A DNA stretch of 5,991 nt from Candidatus Iainarchaeum sp. GTDB taxonomy: Archaea > Iainarchaeota > Iainarchaeia > Iainarchaeales > CSSED10-239. Every line of letters begins with the position of its first letter. Within the stretch, counting starts at the first letter, position 1. Below are positions 2 through 5,991 of the stretch, one piece after another. Under the pieces are notes generated by a model. That model searched no databases, had not been told where the DNA came from, and saw only the letters and a program-made list of their open reading frames with translations. Location of the stretch: positions 1-5,991 of the forward strand of contig PWLL01000057.1 of assembly GCA_003559395.1 (NCBI GenBank), read 5' to 3'. The position numbers and the translations under genes are program-made.

Positions 2-412
2 GAGTGGAGAGATGATGAAGGGAATATTGATTATGAAAAACATTATGCTGTAGTTAGTTGGTTTGAAACTGATTATGATAGACCTGAAACTAGAATGGTT
101 GAATACGAAGTATGTGATGATTATGAAAAAGAGATTAATTGTAGGATTGAGAGGTTTGAAGAAGAATATTTTCCTCACGAAAAAGAAGTGTTTGGTTTTA
201 ATGTAGAAACAAGGATTGCTGAAATGGAAGGAATGCATTGGGAATTATGGGGTTTTGTTAAAACAATACAAACCCAAATAACAAACATATTAAACAGGTT
301 GACTGGAGCAGAAGCAAGAATAGAAAGTTTAGAAGCAGAAAATGTTTTAATCAAAAACGAATTATGCGAAAAGGATAATTCGTATTCTTGGTGTAGAACC
401 ATAATAAAATAA
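2..412 (+). CDS. 3' end of a hypothetical acidic protein with a coiled-coil C-terminus (5'-truncated by the window edge)
   Basis: Frame 2 is open from nt 2; EWRDDEGNIDYEKHYAVVSWFETDYDRPETR precedes the Met at 95. No purine-rich RBS precedes ATG 95, so the gene probably starts upstream of the window. Stop TAA at 410-412. The protein is D/E-rich. The stretch TQITNILNRLTGAEARIESLEAENVLIKNEL looks heptad-like. No family recognised. Confidence 0.6.
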   Translation, partial: EWRDDEGNIDYEKHYAVVSWFETDYDRPETRMVEYEVCDDYEKEINCRIERFEEEYFPHEKEVFGFNVETRIAEMEGMHWELWGFVKTIQTQITNILNRLTGAEARIESLEAENVLIKNELCEKDNSYSWCRTIIK

Positions 413-433
413 TGGGGTTAAAGTTGATTAGAA

Positions 434-520
434 ATGATACTAGAACCAATTAGTTTTGTTCTAAGCATTCTAACCTTAGCTCCTATATTAACATTAATCA
501 TTTTGCGAACAAGTCCCTAA
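434..520 (+). CDS. Possible 28-aa hydrophobic mini-protein (MILEPISFVLSILTLAPILTLIILRTSP), speculative
   Basis: ATG 434 to TAA 518-520, translated by hand. It is a single hydrophobic stretch followed by Arg. The only upstream purine run is GGGG at 414-417, about 16 nt upstream, which is poor spacing. It is too short to separate from chance in AT-rich DNA. Confidence 0.15.
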   Translation: MILEPISFVLSILTLAPILTLIILRTSP

Positions 521-532
521 TAATAGAAACAA

Positions 533-557
533 TTATATACAAGTTCGGTATATAAAT
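533..557 (+). promoter_or_regulatory. Candidate archaeal-type TATA boxes upstream of the 1148-aa gene
   Basis: TTATATA at 533-539 and TATATAAAT at 549-557 lie in the 202-nt non-coding spacer. The second box is about 60 nt upstream of ATG 615. That would place a start site near 580 and leave a short leader containing GTGAT (605-609, part of the GGAGGTGATC-type SD). This is motif-level evidence only, in AT-rich DNA. Confidence 0.3.
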
Positions 558-614
558 TATTATGTTTTCAAAAATAATCGAAAAACAAAAAACTATTAAT
601 AATAGTGATGTTTA

Positions 615-3600
615 ATGGGAAGCTATAGTTATTTCAAACCAGCTGCACAACCCAGTGTCCCTTCTTGGTTTAAACCAGGTGTTGTTGCTGCGGCCACCAA
701 AAAAGTAGAACAACACACTGGTAGGTCTTTTATTAGTGGTAGTGGTGGAACAATTTCTAGTGGTGCTGGTGTTTCTAGAGGCAGTGGTGGTTCTGCACCC
801 GCTAGACCTGCTCCAATTACTTATTCTTCTAGTTTGTTAGGCCAAACATTTACAAGCAAAGACGCATTACAAAAAGCTGAAACCCAATACAAACAACAAC
901 AAGCAGAAATTGCTCGTCAAGAACAAGTAAAAAAAAGCGAAGACTTGAGAAAAACCTTGACACAAAAAGATTTCGAAACAAGACAATTTCGAGCAAGTCT
1001 AATGGCTGATGATGTATCAAGAACAATTCCAGCAAGCCAATTATTATCACAACAAGATACTAGAATGATTACCCCTCCTCCTCCAAGCACAAGAACCATA
1101 AAAGACAGGTACAAAATAGCAGAAGCTACTAGACAACCAGGTTGGATGAGAACAAGACTAGCTTACGGAAAACTTGGTCAAACAACAGGAACTTTTAGTT
1201 TATTAGGCGATTATGACGAAAAAAAACAAGCTGAATTAGAAAAAGATATTGAAAAAAAAACTGGTGAAATCGAAGCTCGTCAAGAAAGATATGAAAAAGC
1301 TAAAAAAGAAGCTACTAGAGATGATGAAAAATTACAAGAAGACTTAAAATTGTTGGATGAAAGAATCAAAAAAACAACTACTTATTGGCAAGAAAGAGAC
1401 ATAGAACCTGATAAACCAGGCATTACTCTTAGTGAAGAAGATTACAAGATTTATAAAACACAAACGATTCCTCTTTTAGAAAGATACCAAAAACAAGCCG
1501 ATGATTTAAAATATAAAATAGATGTTAGAAAATCCAAGTTACAGACTGTTGAATCTCTTGGTTTTGATGTTCGTTGGAGACAAAAAGATTTTGAAGATAA
1601 ATATGGAGAAGTTTTTAGTGCTGCTGATGATTTCGAAAAATCAAGAAAAGAATTGAGTGGTTACGGTTTGGATGCTGAAAAAATTAGGGGTTATGATATT
1701 GACAAAGCTGAATATGATTATTCTCCTTTTCAAAAAGGAAACCTTGATTTGGTTGCGAGTGGTGGTCTTGCTTTTTCTACTATTACTGGAAAAAAAGAAG
1801 AGTTAACAGAACCCGTTTTGAGAACACAAAAAGATATTGATACTCTAAAAACGTTTGGTGGTCAAAGAGCGTATAGAGAAACTTTGTTAAAACCTTTTGA
1901 TCCTATTGATGCTGGTTCTAGGATTGCTTCAAGTGCTATGGTTGTTGGGGGTATTGGTGCTGTTGGTGGGAGTGCTATAGGTTCAGGAATACCTTTAATA
2001 GGTACTGGTATTGGTGCGGTTAGTGGTTTTGTGGTTGGAGCTAAAGCTGGTGCTGTTGGTGGTATAGCTGATGTTGTTGCTAGTGAAACTGTTGGTCGTG
2101 TTTATGGTGATGAAAAGATTGGTCGGACTGCTGGTTTTGTTGCTGGTATTGTTGGTACTGTTGGAGCATCAAAATATTTTATGGGTAAAGAGTTTGCTAA
2201 GCGGACTGTTGTTAAAACACTAAAACCTACTATTGCACAACAAGTTCTTGAACAACGGGTTGTTGAAGGAAAAATTGTGACTGGTAAAGGATTGGTTAAA
2301 GGACAAATAATCCAACCTTATGAAATCAAGGTTTTGGCTAGTCAAGGAAAAATTGATAAGTTTATTGCTAAAGGTGTTTCAAAATTAACTGGTAAACCAC
2401 CAAAAACTGTTTTGAAAACTATTACTAGAGAACAAAAATTTATTGTTGAACAAGAATTAGATTTTATAGCTAAACAAGGACTAACAGTTTATCCTAGTGG
2501 AGATTTGGCTGCGACATCTAAACTTCCTGTTATTGGTGGTAAAAAAACTTTTTTTATAGCAGAATCTATTGCACCAACAACCAAGATTATTGAAACAACC
2601 AAGACAAGTCCTTTTAGAGAAAAACTTGCTAGTTTTATTATTCCAGGCAAAACAAAAGGTTTGGCTGCACAAGATGGAACAAAGTTTCAAAATTTTTGGA
2701 TTGACAAACCAAAAACAGTAACCCAAAAAATTGCTAGTCGTGTTAGAGGAGAAAAATTTGTTGACGATTCTTATTTCAGAGACATGGGGTTTTATCAACC
2801 AGTTTATCAAACTAGAGATGGTCGAGTTTTAACTTTCGTTGACAAGGTGAGCACGGTTTCGACTCCTAGAGGAATACAAATTACTCGTATGGTGGATTTG
2901 AAAGATGGTAAAGAGTTTTTGGGGACTTCTGGTTTTTGGGATTTTGGGAAAAAATTAACAGCAACACAGTTTGTTGGTAAAAGATTACCCGAAATCCTTA
3001 AACCCAGTGGTTCCAAAATCTTGTCTATTACTGGAGAAAAACCTCTTGCGTTGCCTGGAATAGTAACAGGAAAAGGAGTAACGAGTATGAGTTTTGCAGA
3101 AGCTTCTAAACAATTAACTCAACAAAAAGCGTTGTCTGTAGTGGCTAGTGGTCAGTTAAAACAAGTTAGTTTGGGTATACAAAAAGATGTGAGTGCTAGG
3201 AGTCTTGGTATTGTTGCTCCTGGTTATTTAAAGTCGAGTTATGGTGGTGGTATAGTATTGGCTAAAGCTGGTAGGATTAGAGGTTATGACGGTGCTGTGG
3301 ATTATACTGATGTTGGTGTTGATAGTGTTGGAACAGTTTCTAGACCAGCGAGTTTGTCTACACCGAGTGTTGGTGGCTTGACTAGTATTGATTTTAAAGA
3401 GCGTGTTGATGTTGGTGTGAAAGATGTTTTTGTTGATAGGACTAAGGTGTTTCAACCTTACAAAGTTTTTTCTCCTACAATTTCGAAAGTGGTTGTTGGT
3501 CAAAAACTTGGTTATGATAAGGTTGATAGGTTTAGGGTTGATGGTAAGATAGTTGATAGGTTGGATACTTCTCAAGATACTAGGCTTGTTGATAGGCTTG

Positions 3601-4061
3601 GCTTGGGTCAAGGAACTATTATGCAGGTTGGACAAGTTACGATGCAAGATACTAGGCTTGTTGATAGGTTAAGTTTAGTTGATAGGTTGGATACTCCAAG
3701 ACCAGTGATCGATTTTAAAATAAAAATCTCTCCACCAATCCCTCCACCTATTGTTGGTGGTGGCCTGCCTGGTTTTGGTAGGTTTGATGTTGGGTTTGGA
3801 GTGCCTAAACAACCGAGAAGAAGAAAAGCGGGTAGGGTTAGTCCTTTGTTTGCTATTAAAAGCGATTTTTATAGGAAGTTTGTTACAGGAGAAAAAGATT
3901 TGTTAGTATCAAAAGAAAACGTTGCGTTAGTAAAGGGTTTGAGAGCAAGAAAGGGTTCTTTGTTAGCGTTTATTCCGACAAAAGAATTGTTGGCTAAGAA
4001 AAAAAAGAGTAGAAAGAGTTTTTGGGAGGATTCTGGATGGTTGAAGAAGTTCGGTCTTTAA
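615..4061 (+). CDS. Large (1148 aa) mosaic structural-type protein of unknown family; candidates are a virion fibre or ejection protein, or a tape-measure-like protein
   Basis: Uninterrupted 3447-nt ORF. ATG 615 is the first start after the in-frame TGA at 606-608. GTGAT lies 5 nt upstream. Codon usage is consistent along the ORF. There is no signal peptide, no Walker A motif and no catalytic motif I recognise. Stop TAA at 4059-4061. Confidence 0.93.
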   Translation: MGSYSYFKPAAQPSVPSWFKPGVVAAATKKVEQHTGRSFISGSGGTISSGAGVSRGSGGSAPARPAPITYSSSLLGQTFTSKDALQKAETQYKQQQAEIARQEQVKKSEDLRKTLTQKDFETRQFRASLMADDVSRTIPASQLLSQQDTRMITPPPPSTRTIKDRYKIAEATRQPGWMRTRLAYGKLGQTTGTFSLLGDYDEKKQAELEKDIEKKTGEIEARQERYEKAKKEATRDDEKLQEDLKLLDERIKKTTTYWQERDIEPDKPGITLSEEDYKIYKTQTIPLLERYQKQADDLKYKIDVRKSKLQTVESLGFDVRWRQKDFEDKYGEVFSAADDFEKSRKELSGYGLDAEKIRGYDIDKAEYDYSPFQKGNLDLVASGGLAFSTITGKKEELTEPVLRTQKDIDTLKTFGGQRAYRETLLKPFDPIDAGSRIASSAMVVGGIGAVGGSAIGSGIPLIGTGIGAVSGFVVGAKAGAVGGIADVVASETVGRVYGDEKIGRTAGFVAGIVGTVGASKYFMGKEFAKRTVVKTLKPTIAQQVLEQRVVEGKIVTGKGLVKGQIIQPYEIKVLASQGKIDKFIAKGVSKLTGKPPKTVLKTITREQKFIVEQELDFIAKQGLTVYPSGDLAATSKLPVIGGKKTFFIAESIAPTTKIIETTKTSPFREKLASFIIPGKTKGLAAQDGTKFQNFWIDKPKTVTQKIASRVRGEKFVDDSYFRDMGFYQPVYQTRDGRVLTFVDKVSTVSTPRGIQITRMVDLKDGKEFLGTSGFWDFGKKLTATQFVGKRLPEILKPSGSKILSITGEKPLALPGIVTGKGVTSMSFAEASKQLTQQKALSVVASGQLKQVSLGIQKDVSARSLGIVAPGYLKSSYGGGIVLAKAGRIRGYDGAVDYTDVGVDSVGTVSRPASLSTPSVGGLTSIDFKERVDVGVKDVFVDRTKVFQPYKVFSPTISKVVVGQKLGYDKVDRFRVDGKIVDRLDTSQDTRLVDRLGLGQGTIMQVGQVTMQDTRLVDRLSLVDRLDTPRPVIDFKIKISPPIPPPIVGGGLPGFGRFDVGFGVPKQPRRRKAGRVSPLFAIKSDFYRKFVTGEKDLLVSKENVALVKGLRARKGSLLAFIPTKELLAKKKKSRKSFWEDSGWLKKFGL
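1212..1544 (+). other. K/E/Q-rich predicted coiled-coil region of the 1148-aa protein (aa ~200-310; a shorter one at aa ~80-125, nt 852-989)
   Basis: Sequences such as DEKKQAELEKDIEKKTGEIEARQERYEKAKKEATRDDEKLQEDLKLLDERIKK and KDALQKAETQYKQQQAEIARQEQVKKSEDLRK are charged, helix-favouring and free of Pro/Gly. Judged by eye; no coiled-coil predictor was run. Confidence 0.5.
1923..2171 (+). other. Glycine-zipper / GxxxG-rich hydrophobic segment (aa 437-519), a putative membrane-inserting hairpin
   Basis: IASSAMVVGGIGAVGGSAIGSGIPLIGTGIGAVSGFVVGAKAGAVGGIADVVA is about 53 residues with one Lys and one Asp as its only charges. A second stretch follows, TAGFVAGIVGTVGAS. The DNA is low-complexity GGT/GTT/GCT, with repeats TGCTGTTGGTGG (1958-1969 and 2051-2062) and GGTATTGGTGC (1950-1960 and 2008-2018). 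Confidence 0.7.
3522..3695 (+). repeat. In-frame VDR(L) repeat array with perfect 24-nt and 20-nt direct repeats inside the 1148-aa gene
   Basis: GTTGATAGG (Val-Asp-Arg) occurs at 3522, 3552, 3588, 3660 and 3678, plus an outlier at 3432, all in the coding frame. CAAGATACTAGGCTTGTTGATAGG is perfect at 3573-3596 and 3645-3668. TAGTTGATAGGTTGGATACT is perfect at 3550-3569 and 3676-3695. Confidence 0.9.
3807..4058 (+). other. Basic C-terminal tail of the 1148-aa protein, preceded by a PPIPPP hinge (3732-3749)
   Basis: KQPRRRKAGRVSPLFAIKSDFYRKFVTGEKDLLVSKENVALVKGLRARKGSLLAFIPTKELLAKKKKSRKSFWEDSGWLKKFGL is strongly K/R-rich. Its function (nucleic-acid or membrane-surface binding) is only inferred. 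Confidence 0.5.
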
Positions 4062-4177
4062 AAAAACGTTTGAAACGTAAGGGTTTGTTGATGGGTTTGG
4101 AGTGTTTGTCTCCTGAAGAAGAAGCTATTATTCAAAAGAACTTGTTGTATAGGTTAAAGAGGAGTATGAGAAAATGA
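4037..4177 (+). CDS. Unlisted 46-aa basic protein (MVEEVRSLKKRLKRKGLLMGLECLSPEEEAIIQKNLLYRLKRSMRK)
   Basis: Translated by hand; it falls below the ORF-track size cutoff. GGGAGGA at 4024-4030 lies 6 nt before ATG 4037. The ORF overlaps the last 25 nt of the giant gene. Its TGA (4175-4177) overlaps ATG 4174 of the next gene as ATGA. It fills an otherwise 112-nt gap in a tightly packed operon. It has 13 K/R against 6 E. An alternative internal start at ATG 4091 is possible. Confidence 0.5.
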   Translation: MVEEVRSLKKRLKRKGLLMGLECLSPEEEAIIQKNLLYRLKRSMRK

Positions 4178-4383
4178 ATTTTTTGTACGGTTTCATAATG
4201 TTTTTTATTGGATTGATTACTATTGTTGCTTTTCTTCCAATGTATAACGAGGTTATTTCACTTATCCCTTATTCGGGTATTGTTATTACTTTGTGTGGGG
4301 TAATGGTTTTGTTACTCGTAGTTGGTTTAATTTATCGTTTATACGCTGATAGCGTTTATACTGGTACAGGAGGGAGAATATGA
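4174..4383 (+). CDS. Small two-TM hydrophobic protein, paralogue A (69 aa); candidate capsid or membrane protein, or a holin-like protein
   Basis: GAGGAG at 4159-4164 lies 9 nt upstream of ATG 4174. Two hydrophobic helices are present, FLYGFIMFFIGLITIVAFLPM and IVITLCGVMVLLLVVGLIYRLY. It shares the block IGLIxIVAFLPxxN with the next gene. Its stop TGA (4381-4383) overlaps the next ATG. Confidence 0.85.
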   Translation: MNFLYGFIMFFIGLITIVAFLPMYNEVISLIPYSGIVITLCGVMVLLLVVGLIYRLYADSVYTGTGGRI

Positions 4384-4637
4384 ATTGGTTAAACAAACGA
4401 GGTCAAGGAAGCATTTTTTCGTTTTTCACCTTGTTAATCGGGTTGATTTTAATCGTGGCTTTTTTGCCATTGTTGAACGACTTGGTTGCTATTGGTGTTG
4501 CGAGTAATATGAGTGCTCTTGGTTTTGGGTCAATAATTAATTTGATGCTTGGGATGACAGGAATACTTTTAGTATTATTGTTTTTCATGGGTGTTATTAG
4601 TGATTTCCAAACAAGACAACAATATTATGGACCATAA
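4380..4637 (+). CDS. Small two-TM hydrophobic protein, paralogue B (85 aa)
   Basis: AGGAGGG at 4368-4374 lies 5 nt upstream of ATG 4380, which forms an ATGA overlap with the upstream stop. It has a short basic N-terminus (NKRGQGS). Its two helices are IFSFFTLLIGLILIVAFLPLL and IINLMLGMTGILLVLLFFMGVI. Stop TAA at 4635-4637. Confidence 0.85.
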   Translation: MNWLNKRGQGSIFSFFTLLIGLILIVAFLPLLNDLVAIGVASNMSALGFGSIINLMLGMTGILLVLLFFMGVISDFQTRQQYYGP

Positions 4638-4651
4638 AATGGTTTTTTTTT
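4631..4651 (+). terminator. Short hairpin plus T-run at the end of the operon
   Basis: ACCAT (4631-4635), AAA loop, ATGGT (4639-4643), running into a T9 tract (4643-4651) immediately after the stop codon. The stem is only 5 bp. The T-run alone would fit archaeal oligo-T termination. Confidence 0.5.
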
Positions 4652-4668
4652 GGGAAGCTTGAACAAAG

Positions 4669-4678
4669 TTTTTTTTTT
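4669..4678 (+). terminator. Second oligo-T tract (T10), a possible back-up terminator
   Basis: T10 at 4669-4678 with no convincing upstream hairpin. A third tract, T8, lies at 4751-4758 in a similar context (AAAGTTTTTTTTGA). Confidence 0.35.
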
Positions 4679-4689
4679 GAGGAGAATGA

Positions 4690-4701
4690 GTGTGTGTGTG
4701 T
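4690..4701. repeat. (GT)6 dinucleotide microsatellite in the intergenic region
   Basis: GTGTGTGTGTGT read directly at 4690-4701, between the T10 tract and the LamG gene. Function unknown. Confidence 0.9.
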
Positions 4702-4780
4702 AATATTGGTTCGATGGTTGGGAGACCTTTTGCAGGTAAGAAGAAGAAAGTTTTTTTTGAAGAAACAGAATCTTTTGTTA

Positions 4781-4793: not shown

Positions 4794-4856
4794 ATGAATT
4801 ATAAACTTCTTTTTGTTGGAGTATTATTCTTGTTTTTAATAGGAAGCGTACACGCT
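4794..4856 (+). other. Predicted Sec-type signal peptide (aa 1-21, cleavage after VHA)
   Basis: Lys at position 4, hydrophobic core LLFVGVLFLFLIG, and small residues at -3/-1 (V-H-A) before SLTDD. Confidence 0.7.
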
Positions 4857-5991
4857 AGTTTAACAGACGACTTGGTTTCTTATTATAAATTAGATGGAAC
4901 AACAGGTGTTGTTGTAGACGAACTTGGAACTAATGACGGAACTAATTATGGTGCAACACGAGGAGTAACAGGAATAATTAATAATGCTTTTGAATTTGAC
5001 GGAACAAATGATTATGTTATAAGTGATTTTGATTTAGATGATTATCCTTTTAGTTTTTCTGGATGGTTTTATATACCCGAAGGAAGTAGTGGTGGTGTAG
5101 TTATGACTATTTCAGATATAACAGCACCTAATAGACATGTATATATTAGTGCTTCTGAAATTAATGAAACAATAACATTATTAGTAAGAATGGATCCATC
5201 TGGATCAGAAGAATATGCATATATAATAAAAGATATTGAGAGTATAAATCTTGTTGAAAAATGGATTCATGTAACAGGTGTTTGGGTGAGTTCAAGTGAA
5301 AGGTATTTATATGTTAATGGAGAAATTGTGACTGGTGGAGATGATACTAAACAAACTAATTCATTTAATACTAATATAAACAAATTTGTTCTTGGCAGAA
5401 GATATACTAGTTATGGAACCCAAAATTATTTTGATGGTAAAATAGACGAGGTTGGTATTTGGTCTCGTGCTTTAACAAGCAATGAAATAACAACTTTATA
5501 TAATAGTGGTTCAGGTTTAACATATCCTTTTACTGAGGTTAATGCTAATTTTGATTTTAGTTTAAATTACGAAACAGCAACTGCGACTTTAACAGATACC
5601 TCGACTACAACAGATGCTGTTGAAATTACTAATTGGTTATGGACAATAGACGGAAACACTTTATCAACAGACCAAAACACTAGTTTTGTTTTCACAGCAA
5701 ACACAGATTATAACATAGGATTATTTGTTGATACAAACGTTCCTGATTTAAATTCACAAATATATAAAACAATTAGTATTCCTGGAACAGCAAACTTTAC
5801 TTTTTATGATGAAGACACAGAAGCACTACTAAACGATGTTGTTTACACTATTAGTCCAAGCATTAATGGTGTTAGTGGGGGAACACTAACAGACACAAAC
5901 ACACTAGACTTAAACTTGCAAGGAATAACAAGCCAAGAATACACTTTTACATTTAGCAAAGAAAACTACGGAACAAGAACCTACCAAACCA
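4794..5991 (+). CDS. Secreted LamG (concanavalin A-like lectin) / PKD-like / beta-sandwich surface protein, 3'-truncated by the window edge
   Basis: Translated by hand: 399 codons without a stop, from ATG 4794 to the window end. It is missing from the ORF track because no stop lies in the window. It has a strong SD. N-terminus MNYKLLFVGVLFLFLIGSVHA|SL. It then shows Laminin_G_3 hallmarks: LVSYYKLDG..DELGTNDGTNYGA...AFEFDGTNDYV ... YFDGKIDEVGIWSRALTSNEITTLYN. Confidence 0.92.
   Translation, partial: MNYKLLFVGVLFLFLIGSVHASLTDDLVSYYKLDGTTGVVVDELGTNDGTNYGATRGVTGIINNAFEFDGTNDYVISDFDLDDYPFSFSGWFYIPEGSSGGVVMTISDITAPNRHVYISASEINETITLLVRMDPSGSEEYAYIIKDIESINLVEKWIHVTGVWVSSSERYLYVNGEIVTGGDDTKQTNSFNTNINKFVLGRRYTSYGTQNYFDGKIDEVGIWSRALTSNEITTLYNSGSGLTYPFTEVNANFDFSLNYETATATLTDTSTTTDAVEITNWLWTIDGNTLSTDQNTSFVFTANTDYNIGLFVDTNVPDLNSQIYKTISIPGTANFTFYDEDTEALLNDVVYTISPSINGVSGGTLTDTNTLDLNLQGITSQEYTFTFSKENYGTRTYQT
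4860..5531 (+). other. LamG / Laminin_G_3 (concanavalin A-like lectin/glucanase fold) domain, aa ~23-246
   Basis: The motif pattern typical of PF13385-type domains is present. It opens with L..YY.LDG, then G.NDGT..GA and A..FDG..DYV. It continues with W.H..GV, LY.NG and FDG.IDEV.IW.RALT..EI..LY. Recognised by eye; no HMM was run. Confidence 0.8.
5538..5783 (+). other. PKD-like Ig-fold domain, aa ~249-330
   Basis: ANFDFSLNYETATATLTDTSTTTDAVEITNWLWTIDGNTLSTDQNTSFVFTANTDYNIGLFVDTN..SQIYKTISI follows the PKD pattern: A.F...(strand).F.D.S......W.W.FGDG......H.F...G.Y.V.L.V.D......I.V. The core here reads W-L-W-T-I-D-G, a degenerate form of the WDFGDG core. Confidence 0.55.
5784..5991 (+). other. 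Start of a further beta-sandwich domain (carboxypeptidase-regulatory-like pattern), truncated
   Basis: FTFYDEDTEALLNDVVYTISPSINGVSGGTLTDTNTLDLNLQGITSQEYTFTFSKENYGTRTY resembles the V.D..T..PL..A.V......TD.NG...L..L..G.Y...S..GY pattern. This is a weak call made by eye. Confidence 0.3.

Follow-up and report, generated by a model that had tools for sequence, protein, structure and literature searches.

The stretch of DNA considered here (hereafter, the window) comprises positions 1-5,991 of contig PWLL01000057.1, from the assembly GCA_003559395.1 of Candidatus Iainarchaeum sp. It is dominated by a giant gene, which is followed on the same strand by two short genes, denoted S1 and S2, and by the beginning of a gene for a large secreted protein. 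The giant gene, S1 and S2 form a three-gene operon, which constitutes the conserved core of mobile elements of a low-GC family known from metagenomes only. The features of the window are collected in Table 1.

Table 1. Features of the window (positions within the 5,991-nt stretch; residues are those of the giant protein).
Feature	Positions	Residues	Strand	Basis and remarks
TATA-box-like AT-rich elements ATTATATA (532) and TATATAAA (549)	532..556		+	Read from the sequence; ~60-80 nt before the giant ATG; candidate promoter of the giant-S1-S2 operon
Giant protein gene	615..4061		+	ATG start; 1148 aa, 125.7 kDa, pI 9.75
Gly/Ser-rich low-complexity stretch SGSGGTISSGAGVSRGSGGS	735..794	41-60	+	Translation
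Charged K/E/Q/R/D helix-prone region	840..1889	~76-425	+	Composition
Glycine-zipper hydrophobic block	1920..2189	436-525	+	GxxxG enrichment, hydrophobicity, conservation
Variable V/I/T/K/G-rich basic region	2205..3419	531-935	+	Net charge +26
Short-repeat array, six [VIL]DR[LFT] motifs	3432..3692	940-1025	+	Motif scan, DNA repeats
PPIPPP proline hinge	3732..3749	1040-1045	+	Followed by Gly-rich GGGLPGFGRFDVGFG, then basic cluster RRRK
Conserved basic C-terminal domain	3837..4058	1075-1148	+	SPLFAIKSDFYRKFVTGEKD...IPTKELLAKKKK...FGL; family signature
S1, leaderless 69-aa protein with two hydrophobic helices	4174..4383		+	Candidate capsid hairpin protein
S2, 85-aa two-helix hairpin protein	4380..4637		+	ATGA overlap of its start with the S1 stop; putative major capsid protein
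Three longest T-runs of the window (T9, T10, T8)	4643..4758		+	Within the 156-nt gap after S2; no hairpins; candidate archaeal-type terminators closing the giant-S1-S2 operon
Secreted Laminin_G_3 + PKD-like protein	4794..5991, past the window end		+	Signal peptide, strong Shine-Dalgarno, Pfam 9.9e-21; candidate adhesin or tail-spike

Checked on both strands, the interval of the giant gene contains one long open reading frame (ORF) alone, and the ORF call bears out the 1148-aa protein that an earlier note, made from the DNA letters, had placed there. Translation and windowed composition likewise recover all the parts which that note had listed, in the same order, beta-richness apart. The Gly/Ser-rich stretch has equivalents in the relatives of the giant protein, where it is followed by the motif 'TYTD..G.K.S'. 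In the helix-prone region, charged residues make up 45-70% of each 50-aa segment, heptad periodicity in Fourier analysis is weak (z 1.5-1.9), and two conserved family motifs are embedded, LSEEDY (aa 272-277) and DYSP.Q (aa 368-373). The glycine block contains 10 GxxxG motifs, compared with 5.4 +/- 1.8 in shuffled sequences, 1.5% of which reach 10, and probably consists of two or three membrane-embedded or lattice-embedded helices. The basic region that comes next is the part with the greatest divergence in length and sequence among family members. The repeat array, in which QDTRLVDRL occurs twice, is underlain by exact DNA repeats (24-nt copies at 3573 and 3645, and 20-nt copies at 3550 and 3676), and the relatives possess analogous D/R-rich repeats (PDRVPDRL, DTRLRQD and similar) at the equivalent position. 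The last 118 aa carry a net charge of +18, with a pI of 10.8. In a low-confidence AlphaFold2 model of the whole protein, helices are confined to aa 81-592 and 1077-1135, the remainder being coil; within aa 81-424, confidence is low except at aa ~210-290 (pLDDT 52-72), and the C-terminal domain is modelled as three helices (pLDDT 40-52). The C-terminal half, which the earlier note described as beta-rich, lacks a period-2 hydrophobic signal (z -1.4 to -2.0) and is mostly coil in the model (pLDDT ~25-35), so that this part of the description is not confirmed.

The abrupt change in DNA composition that had been placed near nt 1900 is real: the A content drops from 42.5% (nt 840-1890) to 19.3% (nt 1890-2205), and G+T rises from 43% to 71%. 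Beyond nt 2205, the A content returns to 33%, hence there is no two-state switch. The change mirrors amino-acid content, with residues encoded by AAA, GAA and CAA giving way to those encoded by GGT, GTT and GCT, because synonymous codon preference is the same in both halves of the gene. The fractions in the first and second half, respectively, are 0.57 and 0.60 for four-fold codons ending in T, 0.96 and 0.80 for K/E/Q codons ending in A, and 0.73 and 0.88 for D/N/F/Y/H codons ending in T. The proposal, drawn from the switch, that two modules have been fused is accordingly not borne out by the DNA. Moreover, the close homologs are colinear with the giant protein over its full length, and the architecture is therefore old. 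The idea of a mosaic survives in a weak form, in that one distant clade encodes the N-terminal module as a separate gene of 350-530 aa just upstream; a modular history has no other support.

S1 and S2 are paralogs (hhalign probability 94%, E 1e-7), and 95 homolog clusters of S2 are represented. AlphaFold2 modelling of S2, on an alignment of its homologs, yields an alpha-hairpin (pLDDT 80.7) with helices at residues 3-41 and 50-81; an N-x-S sequon is present in the S2 loop in 74 of 93 sequences, and the C-terminal motif SDFQTRQ is conserved. S2 and its homologs start with a basic leader, variable and 4-21 residues long; next come a nearly invariant [KR]-[GA]-Q-G-[ST] motif and the hydrophobic helix. 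S1 is leaderless and begins directly at the helix. The motif resembles an archaeal class III (prepilin-type) cleavage site, the kind recognised by prepilin peptidase, and S2 may be proteolytically processed. When the S2 hairpin was compared by Foldseek to the PDB and BFVD, nothing matched at E <= 0.001, which is unsurprising for so simple a hairpin.

With respect to transcription signals, a scan for sigma-70 promoters found sites no more numerous than in shuffled sequence, and a scan for intrinsic-terminator hairpins across the T-runs after S2 found none. In the relatives, the S1 start overlaps the giant stop, and the 112-nt spacer between these two genes is thus specific to the lineage of the window. 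This spacer is crossed by a basic ORF of 46-51 aa (4022-4177), which is called as a gene on the Logan contig L043.

The giant protein shows no significant match in Pfam, PHROGs, NCBIfam or the PDB sequences and matches no cellular family, and a word-indexed search of 5.8 billion proteins returned the protein itself only. Exhaustive phmmer search of 1.84 billion representatives identified 10 relatives. Among these are two full-length homologs with 34% identity, P0002 (1085 aa, E 1e-82) and P0003 (1146 aa, E 2e-75); four relatives of 1236-1405 aa and one 333-aa sequence whose common part is the last ~100 aa only; P0005 and P0011, in which the similarity lies mainly in the glycine block; and P0007 (157 aa), where the match is limited to aa 18-134, in the N-terminal region. 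A profile of the C-terminal part retrieved two fragments only in the protein search and no PDB match. Scanning metagenome contigs for the C-terminal motif pattern produced 28 loci, to which locus look-ups added more. The family thus assembled spans lengths of 1085-2501 aa and is metagenome-only: in the searches that could be run, no relatives were present in IMG/VR, the 50,697 virus genomes of INPHARED or the 185,579 species genomes of GTDB. Conservation peaks in the glycine-zipper block (0.30-0.40) and in the C-terminal domain (0.40-0.57), the consensus of the latter being ...P[LIV]FQ[VL]K[SA]D[LF]FRKF[VA][TS]GEKD...IPTKELL.KKKK...; smaller motifs common to the family are the G/S stretch with 'TYTD', LSEEDY and YSP.Q. 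Short D/R-rich repeats and a proline hinge precede the C-terminal domain in all members. In the locus of P0002 (L003, 91-566), the first ~100 aa seen in P0003 are found in two short overlapping ORFs in other frames before the called start, reflecting either frameshifting sequence errors or a real split, and the true N-terminus is probably longer. At another locus (L023, 4492-10330), the giant gene is split into ORFs of 1624 aa and 274 aa.

All loci of the family have 30-34% GC, with the genes on a single strand, and the contigs range from 25 to at least 71 kb, among them Logan SRR22808070_30 (36.3 kb), ENA ERZ2648158 NODE_1591 (30.5 kb), ERZ1026814 NODE-422 (25.3 kb) and Ga0247841_10000941 (71 kb). 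S1 and S2 come after the giant gene in essentially every locus that has downstream DNA. Beyond S2, the usual order is a LamG-type large protein, a membrane protein of 165-182 aa, a polytopic membrane protein of 369 aa (cluster C7), which matched no known family, and other membrane proteins of small size. The few other recognisable genes encode an N6/N4 DNA methylase, an ERCC4 nuclease, an SPFH/Band 7 protein, TnpB, a glycosyltransferase and a methyltransferase. The upstream side is different. In the window, it holds an acidic, coiled-coil-like ORF (2-412) of at least 136 aa that is open at the window start, lacks a counterpart in all the loci retrieved and matches no family; hence, conservation does not extend upstream of the giant gene, and the genes found there also vary among the relatives.

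Several individual loci show departures from the usual layout. In one clade, an element of the IS200/IS605 type, comprising a 139-aa TnpA-like ORF and a 385-aa TnpB with OrfB_IS605 and Cas12f-like TNB domains, lies directly after S2 (L033, 6344-7917; L032, 10964-11383). In L044 (1-3344), the giant gene and S1 are separated by an inserted LamG-type gene of 988 aa. On a 38-kb contig (L047, 2504-3139), genes for a TatC homolog and for a beta-helix protein lie immediately before a module of LamG, giant, S1 and S2 genes; virus-like elements do not usually encode a subunit of the twin-arginine translocase. Upstream of the giant gene in a 30.5-kb relative (L049, 2203-2790), there is a gene for a 195-aa YdcK beta-solenoid/bactofilin-repeat protein (Pfam 2.8e-30). 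L017 (25,298 bp) and L044 (25,346 bp) are independent assemblies of related elements that have nearly equal lengths and different opening points, L044 beginning inside the giant gene, which suggests that both are complete circular genomes of about 25.3 kb.

This context bears on one of the two functions that the earlier note had proposed for the giant protein, namely, that of a tape measure of a tailed virus (Caudoviricetes), in which 1148 aa would specify a tail of ~170 nm and the glycine-rich segment would form a DNA-ejection channel. Such a role would fit the combination of a coiled-coil-like charged region with a glycine-zipper block, as well as the highly variable length of the family members (1085-2501 aa), both ends of which are conserved, and there is also a weak match to phrog_10780, 'tail length tape measure protein' (E 0.0065, 15 bits). 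However, this match covers aa 39-256, that is, low-complexity and charged sequence, and does not amount to a significant tape-measure profile match. The tail-assembly chaperone pair with a -1 frameshift that the note had expected upstream is lacking: the only ORF there is unrelated and separated from the giant gene by a 202-nt gap, no -1 frame ORF overlaps it, and the upstream genes are not conserved. Downstream, the genes next to the giant gene are those of two very small hairpin membrane proteins, not distal-tail or baseplate genes. Pfam and PHROG searches, run on partial genomes with up to 20 kb of surrounding DNA per locus (L011, L017, L044 and L049), detected no terminase, portal, HK97 capsid or tail genes, and tblastn found no match in 50,697 phage records. 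We consider a tape measure highly unlikely.

The context instead leads to spindle-shaped viruses. The relative L049 (20 kb of the 30.5-kb contig was seen; its giant protein is P0010) encodes a single ATPase, for which the best PHROGs are phrog_5484 (E 2e-4, profile positions 25-230 of 239) and phrog_11254. The membership of phrog_5484 was checked and includes B251 of SSV1 (5e-101) and ORF16 of His1 (3e-62). Among 50,697 virus records, the L049 ATPase matches only that of the Haloferax lemon-shaped virus LSV-48N (tblastn 2e-13; phmmer 5e-19), where the homolog is CDS0023.

The genome of LSV-48N (PP151251.1) has a layout like that of the window, with CDS0015 (824 aa), CDS0014 (86 aa), CDS0013 (92 aa) and CDS0012 (904 aa, secreted). 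CDS0014 and CDS0013 are two-helix proteins of ~90 aa with overlapping stops and starts, as in S1 and S2. The features of CDS0015 follow the order of those in the giant protein, from a Ser/Gly-rich N-terminus through a charged helical region, a Gly/Ala hydrophobic segment and short D/R/L repeats to an end consisting of a Pro-rich stretch, a basic cluster and an aromatic/hydrophobic terminus. The true start of CDS0015 (L051, 8053-10527) is uncertain: the 824-aa GenBank sequence opens with a (DR)n low-complexity run, and the corresponding proteomics entry has 679 aa. There are also clear differences. LSV-48N is halophilic, with 60.6% GC and acidic proteins (the pI of CDS0015 is 4.8, compared with 9.75 for the giant protein), has integrases and carries genes on both strands. 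CDS0015 lacks the conserved domain ...KSDxFRKFVTGEKD...IPTKELL, and LSV-48N has no significant sequence similarity to the giant protein or to the S1/S2 hairpins.

Two-helix hairpins of ~70 aa are also typical of conjugative pilins, and the locus could accordingly belong to a plasmid, an integrative element or a cell-surface apparatus rather than to a virus, in which case S1 and S2 would be pilin-like (VirB2/TraA, CedA1/TedC), the giant protein would be a membrane-anchored filament scaffold or assembly factor, and the LamG/PKD proteins would be tip adhesins. The short basic leader of S2 and its [KR][GA]QG[ST] motif have a prepilin-type look, many of the neighbouring genes encode membrane proteins, with TatC beside the module in L047, and IMG/VR contains no relative of the family. 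Nevertheless, the contexts of L011, L044 and L049 yield no VirB4/HerA/VirD4-type ATPase, relaxase or VirB6-like Pfam match, and the only ATPase found belongs to the B251/ORF16/LSV-48N family of spindle viruses. Furthermore, the layout matches that of LSV-48N, a virus seen by electron microscopy, Pfam has no pilin family match for S1 or S2, and the family is absent from the 185,579 species genomes. A non-viral apparatus of this kind appears unlikely.

In the proteomics of an LSV-48N virus preparation, a protein of 679 aa and 74.6 kDa, P_03685, was detected with 81% coverage, 52 peptides and 475 peptide-spectrum matches (PSMs), and CDS0012 and CDS0013 were likewise detected (PMC12714723 Dataset EV2). 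Matched by length and mass, P_03685 is CDS0015 starting from Met146. The preparation was a precipitated culture supernatant, not a purified virion fraction. These data are relevant to the alternative that the giant protein is viral but non-structural, that is, an unpackaged assembly or egress scaffold anchored in the host membrane, which would organise S1 and S2 during budding or extrusion. Co-transcription of the giant gene with S1 and S2, as judged from the operon signals, and the presence of a membrane-active block next to a long coiled-coil-like region would suit a scaffold; the ATPase family is annotated as Zot-like in LSV-48N, and the authors who described Wyrdviruses compare spindle-virus assembly to filamentous-phage extrusion (bioRxiv 10.1101/2021.07.29.453957). 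Against an unpackaged protein, the LSV-48N counterpart is among the best-detected proteins of the supernatant, with the coverage and PSM count given above, in a supernatant that is unpurified and for a counterpart that has no significant sequence similarity to the giant protein. We regard the scaffold alternative as improbable.

A second group of viruses is connected to the window through its LamG protein, for which the best matches among the 50,697 virus records are five Nitrosopumilaceae spindle-shaped viruses; its LamG domain is homologous to that of NMC1 ORF35 (phmmer 1.7e-18). These viruses (BK067782-BK067790; PMC10866085) encode, in an order shared with the present family, two hairpins of 88-89 aa (NMC1 ORF33/34), a LamG giant (ORF35) and a membrane protein of ~184 aa (ORF36). 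All three S1/S2 hidden Markov models (HMMs) rank ORF33 first among 10 NMC1 proteins, although weakly (E 0.002-0.04 in that set of 10). Each of the viruses also has a protein of 1286-1782 aa (NMC1 ORF38, NBC1 ORF42) of a build similar to that of the giant protein: the N-terminus is of the coiled-coil type, the body is basic and rich in V/K/T/G, and short repeats in tandem (SKLDT[KR]IS in NBC1) and a proline-rich part precede a strongly basic C-terminus. Unlike in the window, this large protein is encoded downstream of the adhesin, not upstream of the hairpins, the GC content is 41%, and there is no significant similarity to the giant-protein family.

The sequence comparisons between the window and these viruses weigh against a spindle-virus assignment, as do several properties of the proteins themselves. 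Comparisons of the giant protein with LSV-48N CDS0015, NMC1 ORF38 and a Nitrosopumilaceae C-terminal profile, together with a comparison involving LSV-48N CDS0013, gave hhalign E values of 0.3-0.7, and the Smith-Waterman and HMM scores fall within those of shuffles. S1 and S2 compared to VP1 and VP3 of SSV1 and VP21 of His1 reach hhalign E >= 0.025, again within shuffles, as are their comparisons with control two-TM (transmembrane) proteins, and have no match to phrog_11172 or phrog_5402 in the PHROG search; the power of this test is low, given that even His1 VP21 is linked to the SSV family no better than at E 0.029. Foldseek is unable to discriminate a helical hairpin, the same fold being present in conjugative pilins and in capsid proteins of rod-shaped viruses. 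The spindle-type ATPase comes from a distant family member (the S2 of L049 is 48% identical) and not from the short window, and LamG is a promiscuous domain. The maximum 19-aa Kyte-Doolittle mean of the glycine block, 1.62, is marginal for a transmembrane segment, and the AlphaFold2 model of the whole giant protein, built on a 9-sequence alignment, is uninformative, with a mean pLDDT of 34.9. For the family as a whole, no particle, no replication module and no host or CRISPR link has come to light. Thus, similarity with statistical support to a characterised viral protein is lacking for the giant protein as well as for S1 and S2, and the assignment therefore rests on synteny, hairpin architecture, one ATPase in a distant member and one adhesin domain.

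Several resemblances that had been noticed found no support. That between the basic C-terminal domain and SSV1 VP2 was rejected by hhalign (E 0.67). The C-terminal ~130 aa appear colinear with LSV-48N CDS0015 (...LWKERFGGL), NMC1 ORF38 (...MPASGLLKTKKKKKKK) and NBC1 ORF42 (repeats, IPPAILPPI, basic cluster, ...GFWKL), but hhalign, Smith-Waterman shuffles and HMM shuffles lend this no support; in all three cases, the likeness is one of architecture only. For CDS0015, the phage and plasmid collections contain no relatives, so that no profile can be built, and a literature search for spindle viruses of DPANN archaea found nothing.

With these points on both sides, the elements are most likely archaeal viruses, known from contigs alone, with a capsid made of small hydrophobic alpha-hairpin proteins, either of the lemon or spindle type or a close morphological relative. 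One or two paralogous capsid proteins of ~80 aa with two hydrophobic segments are a hallmark of spindle-shaped viruses (bioRxiv 10.1101/2021.07.29.453957). In the family described here, the components of the spindle-virus module that are found comprise hairpin proteins of ~70-90 aa (by architecture only), an ATPase of the B251/ORF16 type (in L049) and a large secreted adhesin beside them. On balance, we favour the giant protein being a virion-associated structural protein, anchored in a membrane or in the capsid lattice, that leads the capsid operon of a new hairpin-capsid (lemon/spindle-type) lineage of archaeal viruses. Of the two functions put forward in the earlier note, a membrane-active virion protein of an archaeal virus is the better one: the spindle-type module and the detection of the positional counterpart in LSV-48N support it indirectly, and the exact role within the virion remains conjectural. 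The module is of a known kind; the lineage, the giant-protein family and the conserved C-terminal domain are not annotated in the resources searched.

We infer, for the giant protein, a location in the virion, anchoring in membrane or lattice, oligomerisation, binding to DNA or capsid and a role in entry, and, for the element, an archaeal host. Specifically, the glycine-zipper helices could be embedded in the S1/S2 hairpin lattice and lipid, or in the host membrane during assembly, and their seating in the lattice would be comparable to the way in which VP4 helices seat the VP1 strands in SSV19. The long charged N-terminal helical region would oligomerise, and the basic variable C-terminal half, along with the conserved basic C-terminal domain, would face the genome or dock on the capsid proteins. 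The giant protein would probably be situated at one end of the particle, beside the LamG/PKD adhesin, and may help to deliver the genome by insertion into the target membrane.

A more specific version of this scheme casts the giant protein as an internal 'ruler and anchor', variable in length, in a previously unrecognised and widely distributed family of archaeal viruses with hairpin capsids. In this version, the S1/S2 lattice would be nucleated or seamed by the glycine zipper, the basic C-terminal domain would hold the genome, and the variable middle would scale with particle and genome size across the family range of 1085-2501 aa. Contig and giant-protein lengths hint at joint scaling (25.3 kb and 1303 aa, 30.5 kb and 1247 aa, 36.3 kb and 1382 aa, 38.1 kb and 1348 aa, at least 71.2 kb and 2501 aa), in a trend that hangs on a single point among contigs that may be incomplete. 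We view this version as quite unlikely; if true, it would provide a functional analogue of the tape measure in a type of virus without a tail tube.

The broader interest of the locus comes from the fact that lemon- and spindle-shaped viruses are specific to archaea, and the nucleation, sizing and opening of their elastic helical capsids are poorly understood; beyond SSV19, the large non-capsid virion proteins of spindle viruses are uncharacterised. The locus serves to define a family of proteins together with a conserved capsid operon of three genes; in metagenomes, the giant protein is represented by at least 28 loci and S2 by 95 clusters. The locus points to a lineage of archaeal viruses that has been overlooked and supplies a candidate for a protein that links capsid lattice, genome and membrane.

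Among known systems, tape measure proteins resemble the giant protein in being long and variable in length, with a charged helical part, a glycine-rich hydrophobic segment and poor AlphaFold2 confidence, but differ in that the C-terminal half of the giant protein is not predicted to be helical in the low-confidence model and no tail or head genes were found in the context searched. The Fuselloviridae (SSV1, SSV19) and Halspiviridae (His1) have capsid proteins that are hydrophobic alpha-hairpins of ~73-92 aa, in one or two paralogs, with a glycosylated loop, the hairpin architecture being shared by S1 and S2; the genomes of the present family, with contigs of 25 to at least 71 kb, are larger. 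The VP1 hairpin of SSV19 consists of 84 aa, with helices at 15-44 and 54-83, a geometry like that of the S2 model, and the large end protein VP4 (the C792 tail-spike), the helices of which nucleate the capsid strands, is encoded nearby (PMC9351363), just as the giant gene is located near S1 and S2. In VP4, a signal peptide is combined with glycosidase-like and beta-sandwich domains and with a helical anchor at the C-terminus, whereas the giant protein lacks a signal peptide and has its glycine zipper in the centre and a basic tail. SSV1 B251, His1 ORF16 and the relative L049 have the ATPase family phrog_5484 in common. Finally, the same architecture occurs, without detectable sequence similarity, in the Nitrosopumilaceae viruses and in LSV-48N, which is cultivable and genetically tractable, so that the proposed role of the giant protein is testable in Haloferax.

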